Assembly: GCA_963701665.1 (NCBI GenBank)
Contig: OY969622.1
Coordinates: 1,056,001-1,120,000, forward strand
Direction of reading: 5' to 3'
Length of the DNA stretch: 64,000 nucleotides
From: Candidatus Babeliales bacterium
GTDB lineage: Bacteria > Babelota > Babeliae > Babelales > JANWKD01
Shown here: piece by piece, positions 1,373 to 54,232 of the stretch
Layout: the number at the start of each line of letters is the position of its first letter
How positions within the stretch are numbered: the stretch's first letter is position 1
Notes under the pieces: generated by a model
Databases searched by the model: none
What the model saw: only the letters and a program-made list of their open reading frames with translations
Told to the model about the DNA's origin: nothing
Translations under genes and position numbers: made by a program

Positions 1373-1478
1373 GTCATTGCGAGCGAATGCGTGGCAATCC
1401 AATTATAAAATTAGTTCCTTTGAAGAATTAAGGATTTAATTAAAGTTTGGATCCCCACGGCTAAAGCCTCGGGATGAC
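1373..1478 (+). repeat. Palindromic intergenic repeat, copy 1 (core)
   Basis: GTCATTGCGAG-cgaatg-CGTGGCAATCCA...TGGATCCCCACG-gctaaagc-CTCGGGATGAC. Confidence 0.95.
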
Positions 1479-1589
1479 ATCCTTGCTGATCCTATCGAAT
1501 TTTCGTTCAGTATTCTCTTGTGCTTAGAAATTGAATATGGGTATGGTAACGCTGAAATTTATCCTTACCATCTTCAAAGGAGTTTTGGG

Positions 1590-2015
1590 ATGAAGAATCT
1601 TTTTTTAATACATGCGTTCGTTGGTATAGTTCTTATATACACCTTTGAAAACAAAGCCATGCAATCACCACAAAAAAAAGAAGCCGAAAAACTAGTAGCC
1701 CTCTGTTTAGCAACGATAGAAAAACATAAACAGCAGTTGAAATCCAAAGTAACGGAGCAACAAGCTGATCTTTTTGGTAAATTTTTATTGGGTCACTTCA
1801 ATAGCAAGGCAATTTCAGGCTACGGGTATATGTTACATGCAGAATTATGCCCTAATAACATTGTACTTAATCAAGATATTGTTAAAGACGCTAATAATGC
1901 ATTAAAAAAAACGGTACGAGAAAAAAAGCACTTTTTTGAGCAGCTTCCCGAATTATGCAATAAATCACTGTTAGATTTTTCTCAGCAAAGACTGCGTCTT
2001 TCTTTAACCGCCTGA
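1590..2015 (+). CDS. Secreted hypothetical protein
   Basis: AAGGAG RBS before ATG 1590; hydrophobic N-terminus ending ENKA|MQ. Confidence 0.7.
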   Translation: MKNLFLIHAFVGIVLIYTFENKAMQSPQKKEAEKLVALCLATIEKHKQQLKSKVTEQQADLFGKFLLGHFNSKAISGYGYMLHAELCPNNIVLNQDIVKDANNALKKTVREKKHFFEQLPELCNKSLLDFSQQRLRLSLTA

Positions 2016-2438
2016 AAATCGGTTATCCCTCATAAAAGCTTGTTGCACACTCTTAAGCATAGTAACCTGTTGGGCACTATCTTCAGTATATTTTTGTTGT
2101 AATGCTTCATGAGCACGTCGTAGTAATTCATTTTCCTGCTTTTGTTCATTAATTTGTGCTTGTTGTTGAGTATTTTGCACTCTTAAATCAGTGATCTCCT
2201 GTTTCTGTTCATCAATCTGCACTTGTTGTTTATCACGTCCTTCTTTGAATAATTTCATCGCAAGAAAAACAGCGTTAGCCGCTTTCAAAATGTTACCCTC
2301 ACGCATATCATTTTCTAATTCTTGCCATACTGAACCGAGAGGGTCCACTATGTTTTCCCGAGAGGTAGTCGATGATTCATCAGCATATGCCAAGCGACAC
2401 ATAAGAAGACAAACAATAAGAGAGCAACGGTTTTTCAT
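2004..2438 (-). CDS. Secreted coiled-coil hypothetical protein
   Basis: Signal peptide ending AYA|D; Gln-rich heptads with an internal repeat (QIDEQKQE / QINEQKQE). Confidence 0.7.
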   Translation of the reverse strand: MKNRCSLIVCLLMCRLAYADESSTTSRENIVDPLGSVWQELENDMREGNILKAANAVFLAMKLFKEGRDKQQVQIDEQKQEITDLRVQNTQQQAQINEQKQENELLRRAHEALQQKYTEDSAQQVTMLKSVQQAFMRDNRFSGG

Positions 2439-2573
2439 AGATATATACCTTTGAAAAAAGAGGGTTAATTTCATACGGATCCAAGTATATAAAAAAGCAT
2501 ATAATTGGAAAGGATTTTAAAAAAATGATATACTGTTGCCACGTTTTTTTGTTGTTAATGCTTGGGTATATTC

Positions 2574-3506
2574 ATGGGAAAAATTCTTCTTTTTTATAAA
2601 TACGTTGATATCGTTTACCCTGAACAAATTCGAAAATGGCAACATCGTGTATGCTCTGCATTAGGACTCAAAGGCCGCGTTATCATTGCTCATGAAGGCA
2701 TTAATGGTACCGTTGGCGGTAATCCCGATGCACTCGAACTCTATAAAAAAGAAATGTTCACGCACTCGTTATTTACCGACATTGATTTTAAAGAAAGCGA
2801 GGGCGGCAAAGACTTTTTTCCTCGCATGCGCATTGTCGTAAAACAAGAAATTACTCATTTAGGGCTTGATCCACAAAAAATTCGAGCGGCTGATGGCGGC
2901 CAGCATTTAACGCCAGAGGAAACTCATCGCCTCCTTTCAAACCCTCCTGAGAACTTAGTCATTCTTGATGCGCGTAATGAATATGAATCACGCATCGGTG
3001 CATTCACTAATGCAATAAAACCACCTATCCAATATTTTCGCGAATTTCCCGCTTATGTTGATGAACACCTTAATGATTTTAAAGATAAAGAAGTGCTCAT
3101 GTATTGCACTGGTGGCATTCGCTGTGAACGCGCGTCTAGCTATTTAAAATCAAAAAATGCCGCTAAAAAAGTGTATCAGATACAAGGCGGCATTCATCGC
3201 TATGCAGAACAATTTCCCGATGGCTTTTTTCGCGGCAAAAATTATGTATTTGATGGCAGAATCGCGGTCAAAGTTAACGAAGATATTTTATCAACCTGCG
3301 AATTGTGCGCCATTTCTTATGACGAATTCACTAATTGCATAAATGCATCATGCAATAAACAGTTCATTGTATGCCCATCATGCATCATAAAAACCAGTGA
3401 GACGTGCAGCGCCATCTGCCAAAAGCTCGTTACTGAAAAAAAAGTTACCATTCGCACAAAATCTCGAAAAGTGACGAGTGTTCACGAAACGGCTTGTAAT
3501 GTATGA
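2574..3506 (+). CDS. trhO: Rhodanese-domain tRNA uridine(34) hydroxylase (UPF0176)
   Basis: LLFYKY, EGINGT, LDARNEYE, MYCTGGIRCE, GKNYVFDGR motifs. Confidence 0.92.
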   Translation: MGKILLFYKYVDIVYPEQIRKWQHRVCSALGLKGRVIIAHEGINGTVGGNPDALELYKKEMFTHSLFTDIDFKESEGGKDFFPRMRIVVKQEITHLGLDPQKIRAADGGQHLTPEETHRLLSNPPENLVILDARNEYESRIGAFTNAIKPPIQYFREFPAYVDEHLNDFKDKEVLMYCTGGIRCERASSYLKSKNAAKKVYQIQGGIHRYAEQFPDGFFRGKNYVFDGRIAVKVNEDILSTCELCAISYDEFTNCINASCNKQFIVCPSCIIKTSETCSAICQKLVTEKKVTIRTKSRKVTSVHETACNV

Positions 3507-4486
3507 AAATTTCAGCACTCGATCATACACCGCGCACGTTGCAGCCTTATATACAAGAACATGTTCCGCTCAACGATAAAAATTGGTTTCAAACGGGCGG
3601 TAATGCACGATACTTTGCAACGCCACAGACTCCTTTAGAATTCCAACAAACAATCACCTTTGCACACGAGCATCAGCTTCCATTATGTTTGCTTGGCCAA
3701 GGCGCTAATATACTTATCAGCGATGAAGGGTTTGATGGCATCATCGTGAAACCAGCTTTAAATGGCATCACACACATACCATGCGATACAACATCAGTGC
3801 TCGTTACAGCACAAACCAATGTAACTATGGATGCGCTTATTAATTATTGTTTAGATAATCAGATTTTGGGACTTGAAGAATTTAGTGGCATTCCCGGCAC
3901 TATCGGCGGATCGGTGTACATTAATTTACATTATTTCCAATTTTTGCTGAGCCAATTCCTTACTAGCGCTGTTGTTTTAGAAAAACAACATGGCACACTG
4001 CTCTCGGTTGATAATGCCTGGTTCAATTTTGGCTACAATTATTCAACGCTCCACAATGAAAATCACTATTTAATGGAAGCAACCTTTCTTTTGAAACGCG
4101 GTTCTGAACATGAAATTTCTTATGCCCGCGGCAGACGTGCTGAAATCATACGACACCGCGCAAGTCGCTATCCGAACAAAAATACGTGCGGCAGCTTCTT
4201 TAGAAATTTTTATGATAACGAAGTTGAGCTCGTTCAGCATGGCAAAAAAATTATTTTTGTTGCGTACTATTTAGATTCACTCGGCATAAAAGGAAAATTG
4301 CGCGTTGGTGATGCGATTATTTCTTATCAACATGCCAATATGATTGTTAATCTCGGCAATGCAACAAGCAGCGATATTATTGCGCTTGCAAGAAAGATGC
4401 AAACACTCGTTTTAGATGCCTACGGCATTCTCCCGCAACCGGAGTGTCGTCTTATTGGCTTTAAAGAATATCCATTATTACAATAA
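3503..4486 (+). CDS. murB: UDP-N-acetylmuramate dehydrogenase
   Basis: GQGANILISD, GIPGTIGG, GSFFRN, HANMIVN, PE motifs; ATGA overlap with trhO. Confidence 0.93.
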   Translation: MKISALDHTPRTLQPYIQEHVPLNDKNWFQTGGNARYFATPQTPLEFQQTITFAHEHQLPLCLLGQGANILISDEGFDGIIVKPALNGITHIPCDTTSVLVTAQTNVTMDALINYCLDNQILGLEEFSGIPGTIGGSVYINLHYFQFLLSQFLTSAVVLEKQHGTLLSVDNAWFNFGYNYSTLHNENHYLMEATFLLKRGSEHEISYARGRRAEIIRHRASRYPNKNTCGSFFRNFYDNEVELVQHGKKIIFVAYYLDSLGIKGKLRVGDAIISYQHANMIVNLGNATSSDIIALARKMQTLVLDAYGILPQPECRLIGFKEYPLLQ

Positions 4487-4511
4487 CATTTTTTTAAAAG
4501 AGAGGAATTCT

Positions 4512-5213
4512 ATGTACATTATATTTTTTTCATTCTTCTTATTGTTTTTTCAGCAAAACCTAGCTATGGAAGAAAAGAATCCCTGCACCAAAGCTGATAA
4601 CGTAGATCAAGTTGCGCAAGAAATAGATACCCTATCTCTACGTTCAGAAAAGCCCACAAAAACAAAAAAAGTTTCTCTTCAAGAGTGGTGGTTTCTTCAA
4701 GAAAATAAATCACCGTTCACGGTGCTCAATATAGATCCTTATACATCAAAAGAAGAAATATGTAATGCGCTATCAAGAATCCCCGATAATGAAACGGACA
4801 GAGATAAAGTATGCGCACAACTTGCTTTGACACGACATGCTTTGTTGGAAACTAGGGCTGATATAGAAATCGAAAAGTTCCGCAGTCAACTTCGTACTAA
4901 TAAACAAGACGAATCGACAATAAAGGTCATACAAGATGCCTGCAAATTCATAGAGTTATACCGTGTTACCCCTTCATTTTGTATTGCTTTTTTTCAAGAG
5001 GCAAACGACATAATACTTAAAAAATTTCCTCTCAGTACAGTGCCAGAAAAAAAAGATCTAATGGAGATAGCACTTAGGCAAAGAGTTCTTTTGGATAAAT
5101 TTGAAGAGCATAATATATCTTCAGACGATCCAAGTTACACCATGGCTGCGTGGAAAAAAGATTTAGCCGCGGTATTTAAGCACCTGCTGAAAGCACAAAG
5201 CAAAGATTCATAA
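4512..5213 (+). CDS. Secreted protein with degenerate J-domain-like segment
   Basis: RBS GAGGA; signal peptide NLA|MEE; SPFTVLNIDPYTSKEEI resembles J-domain helix I/II but there is no HPD. Confidence 0.65.
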   Translation: MYIIFFSFFLLFFQQNLAMEEKNPCTKADNVDQVAQEIDTLSLRSEKPTKTKKVSLQEWWFLQENKSPFTVLNIDPYTSKEEICNALSRIPDNETDRDKVCAQLALTRHALLETRADIEIEKFRSQLRTNKQDESTIKVIQDACKFIELYRVTPSFCIAFFQEANDIILKKFPLSTVPEKKDLMEIALRQRVLLDKFEEHNISSDDPSYTMAAWKKDLAAVFKHLLKAQSKDS

Positions 5214-5301
5214 TTAACAGGCTCCAAAATCCATTGATTACTTTGCCCATTAGGTAGTATTGTTCTCATAAATAACTCACTATTCTTGATTGAGGATTTT
5301 T

Positions 5302-6690
5302 ATGAACAATACATTAAAGATTCTATTGTTGCTTTTGTTTCTCATTTTTCGACCCTTTCCATCGGTAGGGATGGAAGAAGCAAAACCCAATTATTATGAA
5401 ATTTTAGGAGTCGAAAAAACAGCATCGTCTGCTGAAATCAAAAAAGCTTATTATAAATTGGCGCAAAAATGGCATCCTGATAAATGGACAACAGGGACAC
5501 CGGAAGAATATAATCGCGCACAAGAAAAATTTAAAGAAATCTCGGTAGCTTACGGCGTACTTGGTGATGAACAAAAAAGGGCAGCGTATGATAGTGGAGT
5601 TTCAGGCATTGATCTAAGTAATGTTATACCGGTAGAACAATTGATTGCAATGCTAAATAAAATAGATTTTTGGATTAAATTATACTCGGGAGAAAGTGCT
5701 TACGAAACGTTGCGGGTGGAAAAAAATGCAACTCAAGAAGAAATTGAATCAAGCTATCAAGCTATAAAAAAATCAACTACGGATAAAAACAACCTGAAAA
5801 AATTGGACTTAGCCAAAGAAATCCTAACCCCTCCAAGTAGATCATTATATAATTTAAAATTAGATTGGCTGCAGCATAAACAATTAAAAATTAATATTCA
5901 CCATTGGGTAAAATTATATCCTGAAGAAAATCCTTATACTATTTTACATGTTCAAGAACATGATTCGCCTGAAAAAGCAGAAGAAGAATATCAATTACTA
6001 TTAAAAAAAATAAATAGCGATGCCTCAATCTCTCAAAAAGATCGCAAACAACTTGTTGAAAAACTCAACTTAGCAAAGCAAATAGTTATTAACGATAAAG
6101 ATAAAATCTATGCTAAAGTTGCACTCACTATAAAACAAGGAAAATATCTCGAACACATAAACAAATTAATCAAAACAATAAAAGATCAAAAAGATCTTAG
6201 TAAAAAATTTGAATACATACAGAACTTATTAAAAGCCACCAAAAGATTCAACTTTAACGACGTTATCGATTTTTCTATTTTGCAAGAGAGAGTTACCCCC
6301 GAAACCATGGTTGTTGTTAGAAGGGTTCTAGCTAAGATGGATATTCTAGAAATGCTTCTTGACACTCTAGAAAGTCACATAAAAAATACCTCACCACAAG
6401 AAATCCCAATTTTAATAAAAATTAGTAAAAAAGGTCTAAAAAACTTTAAAAGATGGCAAGGTGAAGATCTTATTAAAAACTCGTATACTTTAAAAGATAA
6501 ATTAGAAAAAAAGAAAATGAGTTATCCAGATCTTCTTATGAAGTATCAAAGAGAATTAGAAAAAAGTAAACAAATGCATCCTCAAGCTCCAATAAAGCAC
6601 CCAACCCAAAAAACTTCTCAAATCCTACAAAATAATTTACATGAATTATACGGGACGTTGAGAACCTTAGAGAATATTTTGCTTGCATGA
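5302..6690 (+). CDS. Secreted DnaJ-domain protein (one intact and two degenerate J-like repeats)
   Basis: Signal peptide [14 protein letters not shown]...[13 protein letters not shown]...KRAAYD; later AYETLRV and NPYTILHV repeats. Confidence 0.85.
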
Positions 6691-6764
6691 AAGCTAGCGC
6701 TTTTAAAAGCTATGTTTATACTGTAATAAGAAACATTTTTTTATTATTTTAGTTTTTTATTACC

Positions 6765-7439
6765 GTGAATGAATTCATTTTTTTACTACAAACAGTATTT
6801 ATCACTATGTGTGCCCTCGGCGCTACAGCCTGGGGCAGAGAAGCACTCGCCTGTTTTGTATGCCTGATGAGCATCTTTGCCAACATATTTATTGCCAAGC
6901 AAATCCCTTTATTTGGCTTGCACGTCACCGCAACGGATAGTTTAAGCATCGGCGTGAGCTTGGGTTTGAACTTACTGCAGGAATACTTTGGTAGAGCTTT
7001 GGCAAGAAAAGTGATTCTTCTGAGCTTTGTCGCAGGTATACTCGTTACCCTACTTTCCCAATTGCATCTATTGTATGTCCCAAGTCTTTTTGATGTCACC
7101 CAGCATCATTACCTGGCAATCTTTGGCATGATGCCACGCATCATGCTTGCCTCATTTACCACGTATCTTATAGTTCAGTACACGGAAACTCTTGTATATG
7201 CCTGGCTACAAAAACGATTACCTGCTGCATTGCTTATGCGCAATTTTTTTTCCATTGCCTGTTGTCAATTGCTTGATACGGTTCTTTTCAGTTTCTTGGG
7301 CCTTTATGGCACCGTTGAGCATATTTGGGATATTGTTTTAGTAAGTTACACCATAAAAATGATAGTTTTATCATTATCTACACCCTTTTTGTGGTTTTGC
7401 AAAAAACATATCTTGGCAGCGCAGGTTCAACAGCTATGA
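6765..7439 (+). CDS. yhhQ: Queuosine precursor transporter (YhhQ/VUT family)
   Basis: Membrane protein with ANIFIAKQI, QEYFG, PRIMLAS, QLLDTVLF motifs; translationally coupled to tgt. Confidence 0.88.
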   Translation: MNEFIFLLQTVFITMCALGATAWGREALACFVCLMSIFANIFIAKQIPLFGLHVTATDSLSIGVSLGLNLLQEYFGRALARKVILLSFVAGILVTLLSQLHLLYVPSLFDVTQHHYLAIFGMMPRIMLASFTTYLIVQYTETLVYAWLQKRLPAALLMRNFFSIACCQLLDTVLFSFLGLYGTVEHIWDIVLVSYTIKMIVLSLSTPFLWFCKKHILAAQVQQL

Positions 7440-8566
7440 CGCCGTTTCGTTTTGAACTCATCCACTCGTCAAAAAAATCACGCGCACGCGTTGGCAGAAT
7501 TCACACAGCTCATGGGATCATCGATACGCCAAACTTTGTTGCGGTCGGCACGAACGCAAGCCTAAAGGCACTCGACAGCAGCATGATCGAGCAACTTGGC
7601 CTGCAGCTTATGTTCTGCAACACCTATCACTTAATGGTGCAACCGGGTACTGATATCATTAAGAAAGCCGGCGGATTACATACCTTTATGCATCGCAAAG
7701 CACCCATTATTACCGATTCGGGTGGGTTTCAAGTTTTTAGCTTAGCGTACGGCACCGTACATGATGAACTGAAAAGTCGAGGGTCAAAAAAACAAGATGG
7801 TTCGGTACTTAAAATTTCTGAAGAAGGCGTATTATTCCGTTCATACCGCGATGGCAGCCCACTTTTGCTCACGCCAGAATCGTCCATTGAGGCACAAAAA
7901 GATCTTGGTGCTGATATTATTATCCCGTTAGATGAACTGCCCCCGTATCATATTGATCAGCACGCGCTCGAAAAATCCCTGGAGCGTACGCATCGCTGGG
8001 AAAAACGCTCGCTTGAACATCATCTAAAAGACGCGCGACATCAAGCGATGTATTCCGTGATTCATGGTGGCGTTGATCCGTTATTGCGCAAGAAAAGCTG
8101 TGCCTTTTTGGCAGCGCTTCCCTTTGATGGGCACGCAATTGGCGGCAGTTTGGGAAAAAATCGCGAAGAGATGATCGCTATGCTCACTGAGCTTATGCCA
8201 TTGCTCCCCACTGAAAAACCAAATCATTTACTGGGGATTGGCGACTTGGCCTCGCTTGATAGTGCCGTTCGTTTGGGGATTGATACGTTTGATAGTTCAC
8301 ACCCAACTCGATGCGCTCGCCATGGCCTCTTATTTACTTCACGCGGCAATATTAAAATTACACACGGCAGTAATAAATATGCACTCGGGCCCATTGATGA
8401 TGCATGCGCGTGCTTTGTATGTAAACATCACTCGCTTGCCTATCTTCATCATTTATATAAAGCGCACGAATTAACCGGATATTCTCTTGCCACAATTCAT
8501 AATCTTCATTTTATGATACGGCGTATGCAAGAGTATCGAGAGAAAATTTTATTAGATGAAATCTAA
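7436..8566 (+). CDS. tgt: tRNA-guanine transglycosylase
   Basis: ARVG, NTYHL, TDSGGFQVFSL, HLLGIG, FDSSHPTR, Zn-binding CxCxxC and HNL motifs. Confidence 0.95.
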   Translation: MTPFRFELIHSSKKSRARVGRIHTAHGIIDTPNFVAVGTNASLKALDSSMIEQLGLQLMFCNTYHLMVQPGTDIIKKAGGLHTFMHRKAPIITDSGGFQVFSLAYGTVHDELKSRGSKKQDGSVLKISEEGVLFRSYRDGSPLLLTPESSIEAQKDLGADIIIPLDELPPYHIDQHALEKSLERTHRWEKRSLEHHLKDARHQAMYSVIHGGVDPLLRKKSCAFLAALPFDGHAIGGSLGKNREEMIAMLTELMPLLPTEKPNHLLGIGDLASLDSAVRLGIDTFDSSHPTRCARHGLLFTSRGNIKITHGSNKYALGPIDDACACFVCKHHSLAYLHHLYKAHELTGYSLATIHNLHFMIRRMQEYREKILLDEI

Positions 8567-8616
8567 AATAACGTAAAAAAATTGTTTTTTGGTATAGTGA
8601 CATATGCGAACGCAAT

Positions 8617-8716
8617 GTCATCCCGAGGAGCAAAGCGACGTGGGGATCCAAACTTTAATTAATCCTTAAAGGAACTAATTTTATAATTGGATTGCCACGC
8701 ATTCGCTCGCAATGAC
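8617..8716 (-). repeat. Palindromic intergenic repeat, copy 2 (core, inverted)
   Basis: GTCATCCCGAG...CGTGGGGATCCA...TGGATTGCCACG-cattcg-CTCGCAATGAC. Confidence 0.95.
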
Positions 8717-8746
8717 AGAATTTGATAATTTTAAAGAAAAGGCTTT

Positions 8747-9813: not shown

Positions 9814-9866
9814 GGTAATATTGTATTTAACGCGAATTCGATATAAATTATACAATTAGCAAGAAT

Positions 9867-9975
9867 GTCTTCCCGAGGAACGTAGTGACGTGGGGATCCA
9901 GAACTTCAATACATTCCTTATATGAAATAATTTTATTATCTGGGTTGCCACGCCCTTAACAGGGCTCGCAATGAC
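9867..9975 (-). repeat. Palindromic intergenic repeat, copy 3 (core, inverted; outer inverted repeats span 9828-10034)
   Basis: GTCTTCCCGAG...CGTGGGGATCCAG...CTGGGTTGCCACG-cccttaacaggg-CTCGCAATGAC. Confidence 0.95.
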
Positions 9976-10049
9976 ATTTTTTTTCTATAATATGCGTTTC
10001 CTACGGCACAGTCATATACATCGAATTCTCATTATTTTGTAAGGTACTT

Positions 10050-11360: not shown

Positions 11361-11397
11361 TCATGCTCCGCCACCTTATGCAATGGCCAGAGCATGA
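11361..11397. terminator. Hairpin between convergent genes
   Basis: TCATGCTC...GAGCATGA inverted repeat right after the permease stop. Confidence 0.45.
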
Positions 11398-11427
11398 AAT
11401 CAATCTATTTTCGGATGTACTCTGATT

Positions 11428-17286: not shown

Positions 17287-17295
17287 TAAAAGCTC

Positions 17296-19832: not shown

Positions 19833-20030
19833 GTCATTGCGAGCCCTTGTTAAAGGGCGTGGCAACCCAGCTTATAGAATTAACTCCTTAAAGGAATTAA
19901 TTAAAGTTCTGGATCCCCACGTTCCGCCTTCGCTTATCCATGTCTTCCGACTTGGCAAGCTACGTCGAACAGGCGCTTCGTTGCGGATCCTGCGAAGCCT
20001 TGGCGAAGAAGGACCGCTCCTCGGGAAGAC
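19833..20030 (+). repeat. Palindromic intergenic repeat, copy 4 (core plus inserted modules in right arm)
   Basis: GTCATTGCGAG...GGATCCCCACG-[TCCGCCTTCG...GAACAGG][ATCCTGCGAAGCCTTGGCGAAGAAGG]-CTCGGGAAGAC. Confidence 0.93.
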
Positions 20031-20874: not shown

Positions 20875-22664
20875 GCCTCTTTAAATTTGTAAAAAGCAAT
20901 GTTGCCATCCTAGAAGTTGTCAGTGCTTATACAACGCTCAAACAAGCGGGCCATTATTGGAAAGGCTGCTGCCCACTGCACACAGAAAAAACGGCCTCGT
21001 TCACGGTAAGCCCGAATCGTAATATTTTTTACTGCTTTGGATGTCACATTGGTGGTGATGCTATCGCATTTATTGAAAAAGTGGAAAATTGCTCCGCGCT
21101 GCAAGCTTCAGAATATCTTATTGATCGGTTTTCTTTAACCGTACCTGAAGAATTGCGCTCAAAAGATCGCCAGCACAAAACGAGTGCACACACCGATGAA
21201 AAAAAACAGTACTGGGATTTGTGTGCGCACACGGCCGCGTGGTGCCACAATCAGCTCATGCGCTCGCCTCATATTCTGGAATATCTCGCTCACCGAGGGA
21301 TAGAAAAAAATATGATCGCTCATTTCATGCTCGGTTTCTTTCCGAGTGGCCAATATGCACTCAAGTCACTCGTTGATTATGCCAAAACGCAGAATTATTT
21401 ACTTGATGATCTTCTTACTGCTAACATTGTTGGCGTAACTAAAGGCACTATTTTTTCTTCATTAGAGGATCGTATCGTTTTTCCCATAAAAGATCATCTT
21501 AGTCGCCATTGTGGATTTGGGGGGAGAATTTTCAAACCGCAGGATACCCGCCCCAAATATTATAATTCCAAGGAAAATCCCTATTTTTCAAAAGGGTCCT
21601 TGCTCTTTGGCCTTGAACTTGCCAAAAAACATATTCAGCAAAGTAACAGCGCTTTCTTAGTAGAAGGCTATATCGATTGTATCGCCATGGTGCAACACGG
21701 CTTTCCCAACACGGTGGCAACCCTTGGTACTGCTTGTAATTTAGAACATTTGAAAGTCCTTTCACGCTATTGCCAAGTCCTCTATGTTCTGTTTGATGGT
21801 GATATAGCAGGCCAAAAAGCCATGCTCCGCCTTACTGATTTTGCCTGGCAGGTCAATATTGATCTTAAAATCGTTCGATTGCCTATAGGGGAAGATCCTG
21901 CCTCACTGTTGGCAAAAAAAGGCGACCTACACTCCCTTGTGAGCCAAGCTCAGGACATCTTTATGTTCTATATTCAGCACTTAGGACAGGACTTTTATCA
22001 AAAAACCTTACAAGACAAGATGCAGAGCACTAAAAATTTACTCTCGCTAGTGGCCCATCTAGAACCGCTCAAACAGGATTTTTTATTACAGACTGCATCG
22101 AAAGCGTTTGCTATACCCTGTACCACGCTCAAAACTGAGCTAGCACGCTTAAGCCACAAAGTTGAACCGGCGCCAACCCAGGATACGCCGGCGCAAACAG
22201 CTCCAAAAGCTGAGTCAATTTCCCTGAAAAGAATATCTGATTTGGAAAAAAAATTATTTTCTGTTATAGTAAATAACATAATGGAGTTACCGGCACCTAT
22301 AGATCACACCATTATTGAGTCTTTTAGTTCACCTTTACAGGAAATTCTTACGATCTTGCTTGAGAAAAAAGAAGAAGCTGCACCCTTTGATTTTGCTGAG
22401 TTTTTTGAACGTTTAACACCAGCCCAGGGGGAGCTTACCAATAAAATTTTATTCACGTATCAAACCTATGATGATACGCAAAGTTTTATGCAGCTTTTTG
22501 AGCATTTTGCCAAAAGCCAATGGAAAGCGAGGGTGAATATGCTTAAACTAAACCTCGCAAAAGCACATAAAGAAGGTAACGAGCAGAAAGTAAAAAAATT
22601 ATTAGAAGATTTCCAACATCTCAAACGTACGTTAACTAGGGGTACACATGAGCAAAAAAATTAA
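20871..22664 (+). CDS. dnaG: DNA primase
   Basis: Zn finger [11 protein letters not shown]...CFGC, FGGR, PKYYNS, VEGYID, FDGDIAG motifs. Confidence 0.96.
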
Positions 22665-24827
22665 ATCAAAAAAAGTAAAAGTAGCATCGAAAAAAGCTGT
22701 AGCAAGAAAAACAGTAGCAAAAAAAGCAGCGTCGAAAAAAGTAGCATCAAAAAAAACAAGCGCAGCCCGTTCAAAAGCGAGTATAAAGAGCCGCCCAAAA
22801 AAAGTCAGCCCAAAGAGCAGTGCAAAGAGTAGCGCAACAGCTAGTCCAAAAACCACGCTAAAAGGCAAAGCAAAAGATATTGATACTCGCAAAAAATTAG
22901 CACCGAAAAAAAAGATCGTAGCGCCGAAACCTACCGCGCAACAAGCGCATGAAGAGGAAGAAACACTCAACCCTGTCGTAGGGGAAGCGCTCGGTGTAAA
23001 ATCTGAATTTAAAAAGGGTCTTATAGAACCACTCATTGCCAAAGGTAAAAAGAGTGGATTTTTGACCTATGAAGAAGTCATGGAATTTAGTCATAAATTC
23101 CAATTGACTGATGTAGAAACAAATAATCTGATGCGCGTTTTTGATAAAGAGCATATTGAACTTCTCATGCAAGAAGAGCTTGAAGCAAACTCGCCTGATA
23201 TTGATGGTTTTGAAAAAGATGATGAGCCACTTAAAGGTAAAAATCTTAAAGAAAAACTTGAAAATTCTTTAGATATTGAAGCTGATGAAGAACTTGTCGA
23301 AGAAGAAGACGAAGCTGACAGCGATGAAGATAGAACGGCAGCAATTCGAGAAGCTGCAAGTTCTGCACAAATTGCCGACGGTGTTAAATGTTATTTGCGC
23401 GACATTGGTAAAATTCCTCTTTTAAATAAAAAAACAGAATCAATTATTGCCGAACAGATCGCATCAGGTAAACGCGAGTCAATTGAAGCTATTTCACAAT
23501 TTCCATTTATCCATAAAGAATTTGTGTCAATTGGCGAACGTATCCAAAAAGGCACCCTTCCTTTAAAGGATGTCATTCAGTTCTCTGAATTTGATCAGGA
23601 AAATTTGCCAAAAGTGCAAGAAGAAAAAGATGCTCTTCTAGCCACCATCCAAAAAATCAAAGACTTAATTGGCAATGAAGAAAAAATTTATCGCCACTAC
23701 CGCGGCAATCTCGATACTGATGCAAAAAAGAAAGAGATGCTTGATAAGGTCAAAGAGAACAAAAAGCTCATTGCCCAAACAATTCAATCAATCAAAGTTG
23801 CCAACAAATTGATCAAAAAGCTTGGCAATAGAATTGAAAAAGCTGTTTTAAAGATTCAAGAAAAACTGACCATCATCAAAGAGAACGAAGAAAAACTCGC
23901 CTATTTTAAACAAGCAAAAAACGTTGATCCGCTTGAAAAAGAAGAGTGCGAAAAAAATATTCGTGGCGCCTACAAAGCTATTAAAAAAATTGAAGGCGAA
24001 ATGGGCCTTCCTCAATCGCTCATCTTCAAATATTATGCACAACTTAGACATGGCCAAGATAAAGATAAACGTGCCAAAGATGATCTTGCCAAAGCAAACT
24101 TGCGTCTTGTGGTTAATATTGCCAAAAAATATATTAACCGCGGGTTACATTTCCTTGATTTAATTCAAGAAGGTAACTATTGGTCTTAATGAAAGCAGTT
24201 GAAAAGTTTGAATTTGAACGAGGGTATAAATTTTCGACCTATGCAACCTGGTGGATTCGTCAAGCCATAACTCGTGCAATTGCCGATCAATCACGTACAA
24301 TTCGCGTGCCAGTGCACATGGTTGAAACGCTTAATAAAATTAACAAAATTAAGCGTACGTTTATCCAAGAACATGGTCGCGAGCCAAGTCATGCTGAATT
24401 TGCAAAAGAGCTTAATATTGATGAGAAAAAGATCAAAAATATTATCAAAATCTCTAAAGAACCAATTTCTCTTGAAACACCCGTTGGTGATAGCGAAGAT
24501 GCATTCATTAAAGATTTCATTGAAAATGAAGATGAATTTTCACCCGCTGACACGGTAAGCAGCAATGATTTGAAAGAACGCGTGCGTGAAGTTCTTAAAA
24601 CATTGACGCCGCGTGAAGAAAAAGTGTTAAAAATGAGATTTGGGATTGATGTTGCTTCTGAGCATACCCTTGAAGAAGTTGGTAAGGATTTTTCTGTTAC
24701 TCGTGAACGTATTCGTCAAATTGAAGTGAAAGCATTACGTAAATTACGACATCCTTCCCGCAGTAAAAAATTAGAATCGTTTTTTGATAAAGAATTTGAT
24801 ACGATTGCTAATGACTCGATCGAATAA
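22648..24827 (+). CDS. rpoD: RNA polymerase primary sigma factor, split by a frameshift at ~24178-24188
   Basis: Region 1.2 ([11 protein letters not shown]) and 2.1-2.2 ([20 protein letters not shown]) in one frame; [20 protein letters not shown] and region 4 ([15 protein letters not shown]) in another. Confidence 0.95.
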
Positions 24828-26170: not shown

Positions 26171-26278
26171 TCACAGCATCTTCCTTGACTTAGCAAATAT
26201 CAAGTTTCTAAGATTAATTTAAATAACGCCAAACGCAATCTAGCTATTCCGCAGGAAATGCGTATTAAAAACAAAGTT

Positions 26279-26376
26279 GTCATTGCGAGCGCATGCGTGG
26301 CAATCCAATTATAAAATTAGTTCCTTTAAGGAATTAATTAAAGTTTGGATCCCCACGGCTAACGCCTCGGGATGAC
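26279..26376 (+). repeat. Palindromic intergenic repeat, copy 5 (core; outer inverted repeats span ~26224-26412)
   Basis: GTCATTGCGAG-cgcatg-CGTGGCAATCCA...TGGATCCCCACG-gctaacgc-CTCGGGATGAC. Confidence 0.95.
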
Positions 26377-26442
26377 GTCCTTGTTTTATTACGTTTCATC
26401 GCATTAGCGTTAAGTTGAAATAATTTATTAGGGAGAGAGTGT

Positions 26443-32431: not shown

Positions 32432-32492
32432 AATTACGCAAATTCAATACAGTGAATTTTGCTGCACAAAGGTAACATTGAAAACAAAAATC

Positions 32493-32643
32493 GTCATTGC
32501 GAGCGAATGCGTGGCAATCCAATTATAAAATTAGTTCCTTTAAGGATTTAATTAAAGTTTGGATTCTACTTCGTTAAAACTTCGTAGAACAGGTCCCCCC
32601 ACAGCCCTTCGGAGCTCATAGAGCGAAGTAGGGTCGGGATGAC
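32493..32643 (+). repeat. Palindromic intergenic repeat, copy 6 (core plus two modules in right arm)
   Basis: GTCATTGCGAG...GGATT-[CTACTTCGTTAAAACTTCGTAGAACAGG]..[CCCTTCGGAGCTCATAGAGCGAAGTAGG]-GTCGGGATGAC. Confidence 0.93.
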
Positions 32644-34187: not shown

Positions 34188-34286
34188 GTCATTGCGAGCG
34201 AATGCGTGGCAATCCAGATAATAAAATTAATTCCTTAAGGATTGTATTAAAGTTCTGGATCCCCACGGCTAACGCCTCGGGATGAC
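34188..34286 (+). repeat. Palindromic intergenic repeat, copy 7 (core)
   Basis: GTCATTGCGAG-cgaatg-CGTGGCAATCCAG...CTGGATCCCCACG-gctaacgc-CTCGGGATGAC. Confidence 0.95.
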
Positions 34287-45006: not shown

Positions 45007-45046
45007 GAAATGTTTATAGTTTTTTAACAGCTCTTGTCGCACTAAT

Positions 45047-46015: not shown

Positions 46016-46046
46016 TATACTGGAATAATAACCAAAAGGAGCCCCT

Positions 46047-47876: not shown

Positions 47877-47889
47877 TAGCCCCCTCGAT

Positions 47890-48053
47890 GTCATCATGAG
47901 GAGCCGTCCTACTTCGCCAAGGCTTCGCAGGATCCGCAAGAAGCGGCCTGTCCGACATAGTTTTAACGAAGGCGGAACGTAGTGATCCAGTCTTTATAAT
48001 GAAAAATCCTAATTAGACCTGGATTCCTACGGCACAAGGTGCCTCAGAATGAC
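47890..48053 (-). repeat. Palindromic intergenic repeat, copy 8 (divergent core plus two modules)
   Basis: GTCATCATGAG-[CCTACTTCGCCAAGGCTTCGCAGGAT][CCTGTCCGACATAGTTTTAACGAAGGCGGA]-CGTAGTGATCCAG...CTGGATTCCTACG..CTCAGAATGAC. Confidence 0.9.
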
Positions 48054-48237
48054 ACTTCTCCTAAACCATGCTTTTTCTTCAATTCCTTTTCTTGATAACG
48101 CTTAGTAAAAAGTGCAAATTATTCCAAGAAATCAGCTCTTAAATTTGCCAATTAAGCAATTTCATGCTACGCTGCTAGCTGTATTATTATATGTTTAACC
48201 CCTTAAACCCCTCTCACTCTTTAGGAGTCTTTTTTAC

Positions 48238-50088
48238 ATGTCAAAAGAAGTAATCAAAAGTAGTCAGTTTGCACACGTCAAACAGCAATCAATCGATGAA
48301 GCACTAAACCTAAATCAAGAACAACACAAAGAACTTGCCTCGTTATATGAGGGTATTGTAGACCTCTTTAAACCGGGCAAAATTGTTATTGGTAGAGTTA
48401 TTAAGGCTGATTCTGATGGCGTTTTAGTGGATATTGGTTATAAATCTCATGGCCAAATCCCTCATTATGAATTTTCAGAGCATGAATTTAAAAAATTAGC
48501 ACCCAACAGTGAAATTGAAGTTATCCTTGATGAGCTTGAAAACCTTGAAGGAAACTTAAGCCTTTCTTATGAAAAAGCAAAGGCACTTCGTGCTTGGGAC
48601 TCAATTACGAAACTCTATGAAGAAAATAAGCCGGTGGAAGGTATAGTCACTCATAAAGTACGTGGCGGACTTAGCGTCGATATCGGCGTTCCAGCATTTT
48701 TACCTGGCTCACAAGTAGACGTACAACGCGTTAATGACTTTGATCAATATGTTAATCAAACCATTACAGCGTATATTATTAAAATTAACCAAAAACGCGG
48801 CAACGTTATCATTTCTCGCCGTAAATTCTTAAATGATCAACGCCAAGAATCTCGTAAGAAAGTACTCGATCAACTTAAAGTTGACCAAGTTATTCAAGGT
48901 GTTGTTAAAAATATTACCAATTACGGAGCCTTCATTGATATCGGCGGTGTTGATGGTCTTCTTCATATTACTGATATGACCTGGGGACGCATTGCACATC
49001 CGAGCGAACTTCTTAAAATTGGTGATAAAATTTCTGTCAAAGTTCTTTCATTCGATCCTAATAATGAAAAGATCTCGCTTGGCATGAAACAATTAACCGA
49101 TAATCCATGGGCACACATTAGTGAAGAGTTCACCGTTGGTTCAAAAATCAAAGGCAAAATCTCAAGCATCACCGATTATGGATTATTCATTGAAATTCAA
49201 AAAGGCGTTGAAGGACTTGTTCATATTTCTGAAATATCATGGACCGATAGAATTCATGATTTGCATAAGCATTTCAAAGTAGGCGATGTCATCGAAGTGC
49301 TCATTGTCTCTATGGATAAAGAAAACAGAAGAATGTCACTCAGCATCAAGCAATTGCAGAAGAATCCATGGCAGGCTATTGGTGAACAGTTCAAAATTGG
49401 TCAAAAGATCAAAGGCAATATTAGCAACATCACTGATTTTGGGATCTTTGTTCAACTTATACCTGGCATCGACGGTTTAGTACATATTTCCGACCTTTCT
49501 TGGACTGAACATGTTACTCATCCGAGTGATATTTATAAGAAAGGTGAAGAAGTTGAAGCTGTTGTGCTTGCTATTGATGAAGCGAATAAGCGTATATCAC
49601 TTGGCATTAAACAACTGCAACCAAATCCTTGGGAAATGATTGAACAAGAATATCCTGTTGGCAAAATCATCGAAGGTGAAGTTTCAAAAATTACCAATTT
49701 TGGTGCATTCATCAAGCTTCCTATCGGCATTGAAGGACTTGTCCATATTTCTGAACTTTCAAAAAATAACGTAGAAAACGTTAATGAAATTCTTAAAGTC
49801 GGACAAAAATATCCTTTCCGTGTTATTAAGGTCAGCAGAGAAGAGCACAAATTAGGATTAAGCTTGAAACTAACTGATGACGAAGAAGTAAAAGAGAAGA
49901 AACCGAAAAGAGAAGCTTCTCAATCTTCTGAACGCTCGCCTAAGAGAGAAAAACGCTCGTCCTATGATCACTCAATGAGTTCTTCTTCGCAACAAACGGG
50001 TGCAAAACCTAAATCACTCCTGCAAATTGAGCTTGAAAAATTGGCTGCTCGAAATGGCTCTGATGATAGATCAGGAAATGAAAGGTAG
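48238..50088 (+). CDS. rpsA: 30S ribosomal protein S1
   Basis: Six S1 repeats (AFLPGSQ, YGAFIDIGGVDGLLH, EGLVHISE). Confidence 0.97.
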   Translation: MSKEVIKSSQFAHVKQQSIDEALNLNQEQHKELASLYEGIVDLFKPGKIVIGRVIKADSDGVLVDIGYKSHGQIPHYEFSEHEFKKLAPNSEIEVILDELENLEGNLSLSYEKAKALRAWDSITKLYEENKPVEGIVTHKVRGGLSVDIGVPAFLPGSQVDVQRVNDFDQYVNQTITAYIIKINQKRGNVIISRRKFLNDQRQESRKKVLDQLKVDQVIQGVVKNITNYGAFIDIGGVDGLLHITDMTWGRIAHPSELLKIGDKISVKVLSFDPNNEKISLGMKQLTDNPWAHISEEFTVGSKIKGKISSITDYGLFIEIQKGVEGLVHISEISWTDRIHDLHKHFKVGDVIEVLIVSMDKENRRMSLSIKQLQKNPWQAIGEQFKIGQKIKGNISNITDFGIFVQLIPGIDGLVHISDLSWTEHVTHPSDIYKKGEEVEAVVLAIDEANKRISLGIKQLQPNPWEMIEQEYPVGKIIEGEVSKITNFGAFIKLPIGIEGLVHISELSKNNVENVNEILKVGQKYPFRVIKVSREEHKLGLSLKLTDDEEVKEKKPKREASQSSERSPKREKRSSYDHSMSSSSQQTGAKPKSLLQIELEKLAARNGSDDRSGNER

Positions 50089-50097
50089 TATCCATCA

Positions 50098-50508
50098 ATG
50101 TTAGAAAAAACCTTTGCCATTATTAAACCGCATGCAGTTGCTGACAAACTTTCAGGCGCAGTCATAAGTCTGATTGAAGGGAATGGTTTTGAGATTCTTG
50201 GTATGCGTAAAATGCGTCTTACCAAGGAACAAGCAGAACATTTTTATGCTGTGCATAACAGTAAACCGTTTTTTGCTGATTTGGTAAAAAATATCACCGG
50301 CGGGCCTGTCATTGTACTTGTCTTACAAAAAGAACAAGGCATTAAGGCTTGGCGTGATTTGATGGGAGCGACTGATCCATCCAAAGCAGCAACAGGCACC
50401 ATCCGTAAACTATACGGAACCTCATTGGATTTCAATGTAGTGCATGGTTCTGATGCGCCAGAAACGGCAAAAGCTGAAATAAAACAGTTCTTTCCAGAAC
50501 TTGCATAA
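50098..50508 (+). CDS. ndk: Nucleoside diphosphate kinase
   Basis: TFAIIKP, WRDLMGAT, GTIR, NVVHGSD. Confidence 0.96.
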   Translation: MLEKTFAIIKPHAVADKLSGAVISLIEGNGFEILGMRKMRLTKEQAEHFYAVHNSKPFFADLVKNITGGPVIVLVLQKEQGIKAWRDLMGATDPSKAATGTIRKLYGTSLDFNVVHGSDAPETAKAEIKQFFPELA

Positions 50509-50536
50509 ATAACTTTATTTTAAATAAAGAAACTTT

Positions 50537-50570
50537 AAGGAGCAGAAAATTTTTTCTGCTCCTTTTTTTT
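50537..50570 (+). terminator. Intrinsic terminator of rpsA-ndk
   Basis: AAGGAGCAGAAA/TTTCTGCTCCTT stem plus T run. Confidence 0.85.
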
Positions 50571-50657
50571 ATACTAATCTTTAATATATTTTCATTTATT
50601 CCACTTTTATATTATAGTGATTATCACTATTCAATACGTAATATTAAAGGAAAAATC

Positions 50658-50999
50658 ATGAAATATTCTCACATAATTTTTACAGGAATTATTTTTTATT
50701 GTTCCAGTGTTCATCCTATGGAAAAACAAAACGGGTTCACAGAAAGCGAATTGAAACAACAACAGGACCGTCTTTTAGCAACGCTCAGAGAAGCGCACAA
50801 ACAACGTGGACAATATAGCCAGACACCCAATGTAGAAAAACAAGATAGCTTGGACAAAGAAGCTTTTCTAGCACGACTTAAAAACGCTCATACTGATTGG
50901 ATAACACAAGAAGCATTGGGAGAAAAGCACAACAAGAAACCTGTTGATAGCGATGAAGTCAGAGAAATACAAGGATTAGAAAAGAAGCTAAATAAGTAA
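50658..50999 (+). CDS. Small secreted hypothetical protein
   Basis: AAGGA RBS; signal peptide VHP|ME. Confidence 0.7.
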   Translation: MKYSHIIFTGIIFYCSSVHPMEKQNGFTESELKQQQDRLLATLREAHKQRGQYSQTPNVEKQDSLDKEAFLARLKNAHTDWITQEALGEKHNKKPVDSDEVREIQGLEKKLNK

Positions 51000-51064
51000 T
51001 CTTTAAGCTTTTTTGATATCCGTATTATTTCAACGGTAGGGCCATTCCTGGAAACAATTCAAGC

Positions 51065-52375
51065 ATGACTAGTTATCACATGACTAAAGCATTCGCACTC
51101 TGTTTATTTCTATTCCATTCATTGCAAGGCATGGATGGCGAAGGAAAGAAATGTTTTAATGCCTATTTTTTCATTAATACTACAGAAGTAGTCGATGATG
51201 TTCCTCAAAATGATGATCATAATTTTTCTGCAACGGAGGCATTAGCAGAACAGCTTTTCAACAAAAAAACTGATTTTATCTTTTTCCCCTATTCGATGCT
51301 CACCATCATTCATCAACATTTTCAGCAAGCAAAAAAGGTCTTATCAACATACGGAATAACAGATCCACTTGAACAAACCATCATTGAAAATAGGGGGAAG
51401 TATTACCCATCAAAACTCTATTCATTTGAGCCAACAGATCCGCTCTCTATGCAGTCTACTCAGAACGAGTTCGGTATGCGTGAAGTCGTTTATAAAAAAG
51501 CAGCATTAGTGATGCATCCTCAAGCAGTTGAGGATAAATTTTCTAGTACTCTTTCAAAGGATACTTACCGCCATTTTCTGTTAAAAACAATCAACAATAA
51601 AGAATTTTCACTTGATGTTGAAAGGTATTACAAGTTATTTTTAGGGCTTAAGCTCAACTTGTGGAGACTTTTTGATACAGCAATCGGATTATATTGTTTG
51701 ACTTCCTTAGATCAACATAAAGATTGTCCAATATTGTTGAAACATTTTATTGAAATCCCCGATTTAGAACAGGCGGAAACAAAAAAGGATTCAAATGAGT
51801 GGACAGCAAAATTAGATTCATTATTTAACTGTAGCAGTAAAGCCTATTGGTCAATGTATATTCATGGACATGGGCAAGAAGATTTTTCAGAGGAAGCAAC
51901 AATTGCTGGCCTTCCTGGTAAAAAATTAGCAAATGTATTAACGTTTTTTAATGATAATCTTGCAGTACACCATGTTACCTTTTTTTCGTGTTACACTAAT
52001 ACTGAACGCTTACATAATGTTTTAAAAAAATACACGCCATTATCATCATTAAACTATACACTACTGGCACCAAGTTCAAAGAAAGACACTGCCCGAAAAA
52101 TGATACCAGCATTACAACATTATTATCCACGATGGTTTAAGGTTCGTAATCACATAAAATTAATCGATAATTCAACCGTTCTCAAGATTGTTCCTAGTGC
52201 GCTCAAAGAAAATTATGACGATCAAACACTATTAACATTCATCTGTCGATACTCTCGAGATCACGCACATTCATTTCATCCTTTTTCAATTTTGCCGGCT
52301 CATACACAAGAACATTTAACTTTTGATAATAAAAAAGTTTTAGAAAATTACTTAAAAGAGCATCAATCGCAATAA
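51065..52375 (+). CDS. Secreted protein with a possible clan-CD cysteine protease dyad
   Basis: Signal peptide LQG|MD; MYIHGHG ... VTFFSCY. Confidence 0.6.
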   Translation: MTSYHMTKAFALCLFLFHSLQGMDGEGKKCFNAYFFINTTEVVDDVPQNDDHNFSATEALAEQLFNKKTDFIFFPYSMLTIIHQHFQQAKKVLSTYGITDPLEQTIIENRGKYYPSKLYSFEPTDPLSMQSTQNEFGMREVVYKKAALVMHPQAVEDKFSSTLSKDTYRHFLLKTINNKEFSLDVERYYKLFLGLKLNLWRLFDTAIGLYCLTSLDQHKDCPILLKHFIEIPDLEQAETKKDSNEWTAKLDSLFNCSSKAYWSMYIHGHGQEDFSEEATIAGLPGKKLANVLTFFNDNLAVHHVTFFSCYTNTERLHNVLKKYTPLSSLNYTLLAPSSKKDTARKMIPALQHYYPRWFKVRNHIKLIDNSTVLKIVPSALKENYDDQTLLTFICRYSRDHAHSFHPFSILPAHTQEHLTFDNKKVLENYLKEHQSQ

Positions 52376-52446
52376 AGTTCTTTGTAACAAGTATCCTTTT
52401 TTGGCTATACTTACATACAAAAAAACAATTTTTTGTATGAGAAAGT

Positions 52447-53223
52447 ATGATACGTAAAGCCATAGTATTAGTATTCCTCTTTTTTTCATCATATTCTTTA
52501 GCAAAGACCATTTTTATCATTGTTCCCGGCACCTGGGCGCATGATCATGGCTGGCATTCAGAAGATGGTGATTTTTTTACTGCATTAAAAAATACTGTTG
52601 ATCAAAATACAACGTCTGTCATAACCTATTATTGGTCAGGCAAAAATACACACACAGCACGAGAATATGCTGCACAAGGATTAGTAAATTTAATCTGTAG
52701 TTTTAACGAATATGATACTATATATCTGGTGACGCATAGCCACGGTTCAAATGTTGCCATTTTAGCTTCACAATTATTAGCACATCATCCTAAGAAAAGA
52801 AAAATTGAAACTATATATGCATTCGCAACGCCTGTGGATCCAGAAAGTTATTTTCCCGACATGAGCATAATACATTATTTTTTTAACTTTTTTTCTTATT
52901 CAGATTTTGTTCAAACAGTGCTGTGCACCTTCCAACGTGTTTATCCAAGGCACAAACGCATTGCCAATATTTCCGTAACCATAAATCACCTACAACCAAA
53001 TCATGATACCATTCATGATGCATTGATCGCATCATGGCTATTAAAAATTCCTGCATGTTTTGATACCTTTGATTTTCAACAACCCGGATCGATTGCTTTT
53101 TTTTCAGGCAAACGACCGGAATATTATATAGAACTTGATCGAGAAGAACGCCTTGAACATGATTTTTATTTGACGCAACAGTATTGCTTAGTGCTACAAG
53201 GAAGAAACAATGCTAAAAACTGA
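52447..53223 (+). CDS. Secreted alpha/beta hydrolase
   Basis: IVPGTW, YYWSG, VTHSHGSN, FATP; similar to 35272..36198. Confidence 0.8.
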   Translation: MIRKAIVLVFLFFSSYSLAKTIFIIVPGTWAHDHGWHSEDGDFFTALKNTVDQNTTSVITYYWSGKNTHTAREYAAQGLVNLICSFNEYDTIYLVTHSHGSNVAILASQLLAHHPKKRKIETIYAFATPVDPESYFPDMSIIHYFFNFFSYSDFVQTVLCTFQRVYPRHKRIANISVTINHLQPNHDTIHDALIASWLLKIPACFDTFDFQQPGSIAFFSGKRPEYYIELDREERLEHDFYLTQQYCLVLQGRNNAKN

Positions 53224-54019
53224 TCACAAAATCGTAGTGAACGCATCATCACGGATTGGTTTTTTTGATTCCGGCATTGGCGGGCTCACCATTCTTAAAC
53301 AATTTTTACCATGTAATGCTGCAAAATATATATACGTTGCTGACACTGCGCATATGCCTTATGGCAGCAGATCGAGACAAGAAATTCAAGCATACAGTGA
53401 AGCAATCGTACGTTTTCTTTTGAATAACGCGTGCGATCAGATCATCATCGCGTGCCATACTGCAACTGCACTCGCTTTTGAACATGTACAGACTGTTTTT
53501 AAAAACGCGCGCATCATAGGCGTTGTCGAGGGTGTTGTGCACGAAGCACTGGCTACTACAAAAACAAAAAGAATCGGCATTATTGCAACCGCAGCCACCA
53601 TAGCGAGTGGCTATCATGAACAACAGTTAAAAAATTATGATCCTGGAGTTCAAGTATTTCCCGTGCCCTGCCCCCTTTTGGCATCAGCCATTGAATTTGG
53701 CACTCATCGAGGCGAAGCGTTGCATACTCTTATAAAAGAATATCTCCAAGCTTTTGAACACACCAATATCGACACGCTTATCTTAGGATCAACGCACTAT
53801 GATATCATCAAAGATACGATACGAAGACTCGTTAGCCCTGCAATTACGATAATTAGCGCGAGCGATGTCATGCAGAAGACATTGAACAATGTTGCACCAA
53901 GTAATGAAATTGTATCGTCATTATCATGGTACGTTACGGGAAATAAGCATCTATTTCTAGCGAGTGCAAAAAAAATTCTTTCGTTGCCCGAACAAAGTCT
54001 CTCATCATTAAATCTGTAA
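53210..54019 (+). CDS. murI: Glutamate racemase (non-canonical catalytic motifs)
   Basis: FFDSGIGGL, DTAHMPYG, IACHTA, LILGSTHY. Confidence 0.88.
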   Translation: MLKTDHKIVVNASSRIGFFDSGIGGLTILKQFLPCNAAKYIYVADTAHMPYGSRSRQEIQAYSEAIVRFLLNNACDQIIIACHTATALAFEHVQTVFKNARIIGVVEGVVHEALATTKTKRIGIIATAATIASGYHEQQLKNYDPGVQVFPVPCPLLASAIEFGTHRGEALHTLIKEYLQAFEHTNIDTLILGSTHYDIIKDTIRRLVSPAITIISASDVMQKTLNNVAPSNEIVSSLSWYVTGNKHLFLASAKKILSLPEQSLSSLNL

Positions 54020-54074
54020 ATAGCCCAAATTCGACATGACTATACCTCAGCAAATGCGTATTGGAACCAAAATT

Positions 54075-54232
54075 GTCATTGCGATCCTACTTCGCTCTAC
54101 GAGCTTCGAAGGAGTTGGCAACCTGTTCTACGAAGTTTTAACGAAGTAGAAACCAGATAATAAAATTAATTCATTAAAAAAGGAATTTATTAAAGTTCTG
54201 GGTCACCACGTCACTACGTTCCTCGTGATGAC
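54075..54232 (+). repeat. Palindromic intergenic repeat, copy 9 (core plus two modules in left arm; outer inverted repeats span ~54021-54291)
   Basis: GTCATTGCGAT-[CCTACTTCGCTCTACGAGCTTCGAAGGA]..[CCTGTTCTACGAAGTTTTAACGAAGTAG]...GGGTCACCACG..CTCGTGATGAC. Confidence 0.93.

Follow-up and report, generated by a model that had tools for sequence, protein, structure and literature searches.

Which agent has scattered a hairpin repeat between the genes of a bacterium is the question raised by a stretch of 64,000 nucleotides (the window) from Candidatus Babeliales bacterium (GenBank assembly GCA_963701665.1, contig OY969622.1, positions 1,056,001 to 1,120,000 of the forward strand; C1:1056001-1120000 below), in which a GTC-tagged double hairpin occurs nine times. 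The genome (G000) is a single contig of 1.34 Mb. [quoted passage not shown]

An earlier note on this DNA had placed nine repeat cores in the window, always between genes and in both orientations; all of its start positions matched, copies in either orientation are present, and none of the nine cores overlaps a neighbouring open reading frame (ORF) of at least 100 aa. Each core consists of two inverted arms, and every stem variant that had been listed is present in the window. A search pattern with fixed anchors and free pairing (GTC-W-T-N-N-Y-GAG ... C-R-Y-N-G-N-N-A-Y-C-Y-R) found 175 arms in G000 and none in any of five shuffles, and blastn of the nine cores against the genome gave 141 merged loci. 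Head-to-head pairs account for 152 of the 175 arms, forming 90 dimers among which no orientation bias along the genome was found; three of the 90 lie inside the 5' extension of longest-ORF calls, the dimers being otherwise intergenic. The anchors of the proposed layout GTCA-x-GAG hold, but 19 of the 175 arms start with GTCT rather than GTCA, and the element extends beyond the core bounded by GTC and GAC.

The flanks of the dimers, here called the shell, are related for 30-60 bp past the GTC and end in the motif ACGYRAAYTCGAT, of which 46 of the 52 matches in G000 lie within 110 bp of an arm. Shell homology was detected on at least one side of 53 of the 90 dimers, including seven of the nine window copies, and on both sides of 25; both ends are recognisable within three mismatches in 27. 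Six of these 27 two-ended copies carry an exact target duplication of 6-7 bp (permutation mean 0.19, maximum 2 among 5000 permutations) and 11 carry one within a single mismatch (permutation mean 2.8, maximum 9). A target duplication at the core edge was also sought and was seen in none of the 90 dimers. The copies in the window are laid out as follows (window positions):

Copy 1, core, 1373-1478: ATTGC arm, AT-rich spacer and inverted ATCCC arm, with left shell homology at about 1320-1372
Copy 1, IS982-type end, 1494-1506, minus strand: one mismatch to ACGYRAAYTCGAT
Copy 2, core, 8617-8716: ATCCC and ATTGC arms, shell not detected
Copy 3, whole composite, 9824-10038: core at 9867-9975 (TTCCC and ATTGC arms)
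Copy 3, IS982-type ends: 9830-9842 and 10020-10032
Copy 3, bases flanking the ends: TATTTA at 9824-9829 and TATTTT at 10033-10038
Copy 4, core, 19833-20030: right arm holds nested modules of a second family
Copy 5, 26226-26410: left end decayed, starting at about 26226; core at 26279-26376; IS982-type end on the right at 26398-26410
Copy 6, 32436-32643: IS982-type end on the left at 32436-32448; core at 32493-32643, holding nested modules; right end not found
Copy 7, core, 34188-34286: shell homology on both sides, ends decayed
Copy 8, core, 47890-48053: ATCAT and ATTCT type with nested modules, shell not detected
Copy 9, whole composite, 54017-54295: core at 54075-54232 with two nested modules
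Copy 9, IS982-type ends: 54023-54035 and 54277-54289
Copy 9, bases flanking the ends: TAAATA at 54017-54022 and TAAATC at 54290-54295

The greater length of copies 4, 6, 8 and 9 comes from a second repeat module (CGWAG-loop-CGAAG with a short closing stem), nested in an arm at recurring positions; genome-wide the module is present in 24 of 86 dimers.

That relatives might hold empty orthologous sites, a comparison suggested in the earlier note, was borne out by a genome of the same genus (G001; 1.47 Mb of approximately 1.5 Mb covered). Of 75 G000 dimers with two flanking ORFs, 38 have a syntenic site in G001, and 32 of these sites are empty. The empty gaps are shorter by the core plus a median of 78.5 bp, the excess being at least 40 bp in 26 of the 32. 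At the site of copy 3 the G001 gap is 201 bp shorter, the composite measuring 203 bp, at that of copy 5 it is 189 bp shorter, and the site of copy 9 is likewise empty. The other six syntenic sites are occupied in both genomes, some with other arm types or orientation; at the shared site of copy 4 (G001, C6 near 521231) the inner hairpin of the G001 dimer differs and the nested module is absent.

The ends also point to an enzyme family. The ACGYRAAYTCGAT motif occurs in 52 of 261 genomes of the phylum and is also found there as inverted pairs about 1 kb apart; G128, G164 and G040 have PF13612 transposases between the paired ends, and G004 has a broken one (elements of 986-1018 bp); 6-bp duplications were seen by eye around the elements of G004 and G164. 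The IS982 family is described as having a length of about 1 kb, 5'-AC ends and direct repeats (Fayad 2020, PMC7335449), and by their sequence the ACGYRAAYTCGAT-ended PF13612 elements fit that description. The features expected of an IS982-derived MITE that are present here are 5'-AC terminal inverted repeats in common with IS982, target duplications and empty sites.

The outer ends and their duplications are absent from the account in the earlier note, as are four ssnA-like GIY-YIG genes of 97-102 aa, each with arms head-to-head on both sides (4/4):

C1:166516-166824, ssnA-like GIY-YIG gene between two arms
C1:261468-261761, ssnA-like GIY-YIG gene between two arms
C1:955302-955595, ssnA-like GIY-YIG gene between two arms
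C1:974631-974927, ssnA-like GIY-YIG gene between two arms

PF01541 has nine matches in all in G000: eight fall in small single-domain genes and the ninth in a frame of 425 aa. The note had proposed a non-autonomous element whose partner enzymes lie outside the window, and the four ssn genes, all elsewhere in G000, agree with this. Of the enzyme genes it had suggested looking for beside the repeat, the GIY-YIG type was found; the RAYT/HUH type was not, the Y1 matches being IS200-like copies. The seven PF01797 matches, which would have pointed to a GTAG REP/REPIN/RAYT system (REP, repetitive extragenic palindrome), correspond to five intact copies and one broken copy of an IS200-like element with its own ends. 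Among the five intact copies (C1:1253004-1254495, 79824, 216174, 53104) three stand in direct tandem, and two abut half a dimer. Repeats related to the nested module flank four other small GIY-YIG genes of another type (C1:224032, 350392, 499269 and 645313), one of them directly behind a tRNA gene; this link rests on reading the flanks, the strict module pattern having no match beside the four SLX1-like genes.

At either end, one ssn cassette of G000 aligns with copies from the window, and one G001 ssn cassette lies between two IS982-type ends. The dimers in G001 are often longer than those in G000, and the ssn ORF can be aligned with 8 of their 22 long spacers (p<0.02 against shuffles), one of them retaining the codons for KLKLIESIN; dimers are therefore likely arm-ssn-arm cassettes from which the gene was deleted. 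The protein of the G000 cassette that aligns with window copies shares 54% identity over 89 aa with a Neisseria gonorrhoeae protein whose gene region contains eight NTS matches. SsnA has been shown to bind the NTS hairpin as single-stranded DNA and to cut a few bases upstream (Chenal 2025, PMC11893778). No G000 arm (0/175) matches the published SRM pattern. Among the best 80 of 556 confirmed metagenomic ssn relatives, the same bulged arm points at the gene in 73, on both sides in 44, and none of the 80 has a published-pattern SRM within about 270 bp; because of this, an Ssn subgroup with its own bulged arm, overlooked by the published pattern, is recognised here at the level of sequence.

We thus favour a history in which an arm-ssn-arm cassette would have lost its gene by deletion to give the head-to-head dimers, and most copies would then have spread as miniature transposons of 180-270 bp on whose outer ends an IS982 transposase acted in trans, this enzyme doing the moving. 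Ssn, by analogy with SsnA of Neisseria, may bind each arm as a single-stranded hairpin and cut just 5' of the GTC, and either such cuts or recombination between arms could keep the cores alike while the shells decay. Since the single IS982 copy of G000 has different ends, the IS982 route is probably no longer active in this genome.

The pairing within arms bears on a different explanation, namely that the repeat is selected for its structure, as a four-way junction or as an RNA element, for instance a stabiliser or a terminator. An arm consists of a 5-bp stem, an internal loop and an inner segment of 5-21 nt. Covariation within arms, asserted in the earlier note from the window copies, extends genome-wide: Watson-Crick pairs occur at stem position 3 in 173 of 175 arms (T-A/C-G) and at position 4 in 174 of 175 (C-G/G-C/A-T), counts made by script which, as the copies share ancestry, correspond to a handful of independent compensatory changes. 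At the variable stem positions of 57 simple dimers, none of which is a homodimer, 170 of 171 comparisons pair within the arm and 61 of 171 from arm to arm, which argues for selection on the hairpin of each arm; each arm is its own hairpin, and this explains the covariation. In G000 the fifth stem base shows covariation with the purine lying one step further in (C-G in 143 and T-A in 31 of 175 arms). A bulged-G register was rejected as the general one, C standing opposite GAAG in 174 of 256 arms of outside relatives, so the shift is local to G000 and the register of the earlier note is the general one. In the spacer alignment, inspected by eye, no clear compensatory pattern was evident, and the spacer was excluded from the covariation counts.

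The four-way junction that the note had derived from this covariation was not supported by folding. It formed in 1 of 114 strands (57 dimers, both strands, DNA and RNA parameters; the energy models treat multiloops and G-A pairs poorly), a long imperfect arm-to-arm rod dominating instead. The GTC/GAC and CCA/TGG segments are complementary, as a junction would need, but these outer and inner pairs hardly vary, so covariation is silent on them, and around the ssn genes 300 bp separate these arms, a distance over which no junction is possible. A role in RNA is in keeping with the enrichment of dimers between convergent genes (23 of 82 against 199 of 1142 gaps, p=0.015), but orientation to transcription is unbiased (25 versus 26), and Rfam gave four weak hits, all well below the gathering score (WsnRNA46, 29 bits against a cut-off of 65.3). 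Selection for a junction or an RNA is accordingly hardly probable.

Only slightly more credible, and still very improbable, is that the host retains the dimers as Ssn targets that modulate recombination or uptake of single-stranded DNA, their mode of arrival being secondary. Four intact ssn genes and the near-perfect stem pairing of the 175 arms speak for this, as does the observation that in N. meningitidis SsnA reduces the integration of NTS-containing DNA (Chenal 2025, PMC11893778). Against it, G001, which belongs to the same genus, lacks a dimer at 32 of the 38 orthologous sites, repeated matches to the arm pattern occur in just 5 of 30 relatives, and the window copies are dispersed, without clustering near one class of genes.

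Several observations weigh against the IS982 reading itself. Shell homology was not detected for 37 of the 90 dimers, including window copies 2 and 8, and in 16 of the 27 two-ended copies the best duplication has two or more mismatches. With the query used, an IS982 element with matching ends was found in neither G000 nor G001. In G000 all four ssn cassettes fell short of the shell threshold, although one aligns to the shell of the G001 cassette, and among the 80 outside ssn relatives two ends within two mismatches occur once, probably by chance. In 16 simple two-ended copies core identity is 91% and shell identity 74-75%, and the identities of core, left shell and right shell are uncorrelated (Mantel p 0.17-0.84), which simple transposition of a unit does not predict. 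A few ATTCT-type dimers (C1:316750, 992594 and 1190091) have an IS5-type outer end instead, resembling the G000 IS5 copies at C1:225845 and 632040. Furthermore, ssn and arms are not always found together among the 30 relatives: G006 has 29 arms, and ssn was not found there with the query used, while G013, G015, G027 and G029 have ssn without arms of the G000 type. The G006 arms stand in tight clusters (C1:52439-117088) rather than in dispersed dimers.

The unequal, uncorrelated identities of core and shell, the dimers without shells and the variety of IS ends around dimers would all suit a process in which Ssn or a partner moves the core from GTC to GAC itself, as RAYT is thought to do for REPINs, the core settling in older IS982 or IS5 MITE shells. 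IS982 shells do hold other hairpin cargo in G128, G172 and G004, and mobility of an NTS-ssnA-NTS unit has been raised as a hypothesis (Chenal 2025, PMC11893778). Against this, no empty shells were found in G000, where 6 of 52 end-motif matches lack an arm, below the 9-19 in shuffles; the empty G001 sites lack the shell as well as the core, and 13 copies in Bacteroidaceae are alike across shell and core. A GIY-YIG hydrolase is not known to have a joining activity. Because empty shells are absent and the young Bacteroidaceae copies are uniform, movement of the core alone is disfavoured as the main route, and we regard it as unlikely.

The Bacteroidaceae copies come from a scan of GTDB for an end beside a GTC arm, in which 80 loci were read of at least 117 stretches. 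Of these, 44 close with a second end 104-352 bp away, 35 of the 44 contain a head-to-head pair, and 28 of the 44 have exact duplications of 6-8 bp (null mean 2.7, maximum 9). According to record titles the 28 come from 19 genomes, of Bacteroidaceae, Flavobacteriaceae, Gracilimonas, Ruminococcus, Treponema, Ca. Odyssella, Calditrichia and unlabelled bacteria. As for the 36 loci that do not close, 17 stop within 250 bp of the match, and about 11 resemble chance hits inside genes. The layout is therefore present in phyla other than that of G000. Arm sequence differs lineage by lineage. The 13 Bacteroidaceae copies measure 158-165 bp, several with exact duplications. In the five hosts tested, IS982 with identical ends is present in two and a relative of ssn in three; the cognate transposase, not found in G000, is intact in G265 and interrupted by one stop in G262. 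Other hairpin families, too, lie inside or next to IS982-type ends, at L067 (G128), L068 (G172), L074 (G004) and L195, which suggests that IS982-type shells collect REP-like cargo generally. A blastn search of plasmids with copy 3 gave no match.

We tentatively extend the IS982 reading to a relay of two enzymes, a possibility we hold at somewhat less than even odds, in which IS982 transposases would carry Ssn cassettes and dimers and Ssn cuts would swap or homogenise the core, with one kind of shell and, in each lineage, its own hairpin. Its proposed range, put forward with the same caution, would comprise Babeliales, Bacteroidota, Ruminococcus, Treponema, Odyssella and Calditrichia.

The likeness to CGTC-tagged REP dimers remarked on in the earlier note is upheld. 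In common with the CGTC superfamily (Di Nocera 2013, PMC3733652), the repeats carry a C/TGTC tag, open the stem with AT (156 of 175 arms, with TT in 19; tag and tail are partly fixed by the search pattern) and have a CCA tail, and they form intergenic head-to-head heterodimers with a conserved spacer. An exact match to a described family, which the note said would remove the novelty, was not obtained: going by the text descriptions, CGTC families 1-4 have a stem of 8-9 bp and a loop of 4-5 nt, in contrast to the 5-bp stem, asymmetric internal loop and variable inner hairpin seen here, which make the arms a bulged variant; and many copies here lie inside IS982-type ends, whereas CGTC REPs are described as lacking a dedicated transposase. 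The NTS/SRM and SsnA system (Chenal 2025, PMC11893778) is similar in that a single-domain GIY-YIG gene of about 100 aa (the class of <150 aa) stands between hairpins with a GTCAT start and an ATCC tail; besides the mismatch to the SRM pattern, gene-deleted dimers and IS982 ends are not described in the available text of that paper.

The closest precedent for the layout is QMITE2 of Coxiella burnetii, a MITE of about 190 bp in which a GTAG REP lies between terminal repeats with duplications of 7-9 bp, and whose shorter copies look like bare REPs (Wachter 2018, PMC5896051); it differs in its type of REP, which is a target of IS1111, and in its restriction to one genus, and its parent transposase is not named in the text available. 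MITECca01 (Halter 2022, PMC9769881) resembles the present elements as a gene-less IS982 derivative of about 240 bp with a parent IS of about 1 kb, 5'-AC ends and direct repeats; an intact parent is present in Cardinium but was not found in G000, and REP or nuclease-target cargo is not described in the portions available. The palindromic elements RPE-4/6/7 of Rickettsia (PMC3767692), compared by description, are similarly ATGAC-rich palindromes inside longer inserted regions (eRPE-4), but often lie in frame within genes. Nothing closer to the layout is described in the available text of PMC10969869, PMC2267715 and PMC6006769. No literature joining IS982 ends to CGTC or SRM dimers was found, subscription journals and ISfinder lying outside the search. 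The system is a combination of known parts with QMITE2 as its precedent in layout, and not a new kind of system.

As the earlier note held, the window itself lacks candidate mobilising enzymes: 53 of its 62 ORFs of at least 100 aa (the other nine overlap larger genes) gave no match to a transposase or GIY-YIG family, and genome-wide searches with PF01541, PF01797 and PF13612 gave no match inside it. Among its other genes, the primary sigma factor gene is split within region 2 into ORFs at 22648-24189 and 24180-24827, perhaps by an assembly frameshift, and encodes lysine/alanine-rich repeats near its N-terminus (22677-22762). Two adjacent ankyrin-repeat genes of about 620 aa lie at 55013-56875 and 56887-58758.

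CGTC REPs are described as without a dedicated transposase (Di Nocera 2013, PMC3733652), and they have been linked to a nuclease that cuts DNA but is not known to join it (Chenal 2025, PMC11893778). For some of the dimers, target duplications, empty sites and shared ends now point towards one specific family of enzymes, and the relay, if true, would supply the mobiliser so far lacking for an appreciable part of CGTC REP dimers. The bulged arm in turn marks a subgroup of Ssn, so that a further specificity of single-stranded DNA cleavage may exist.

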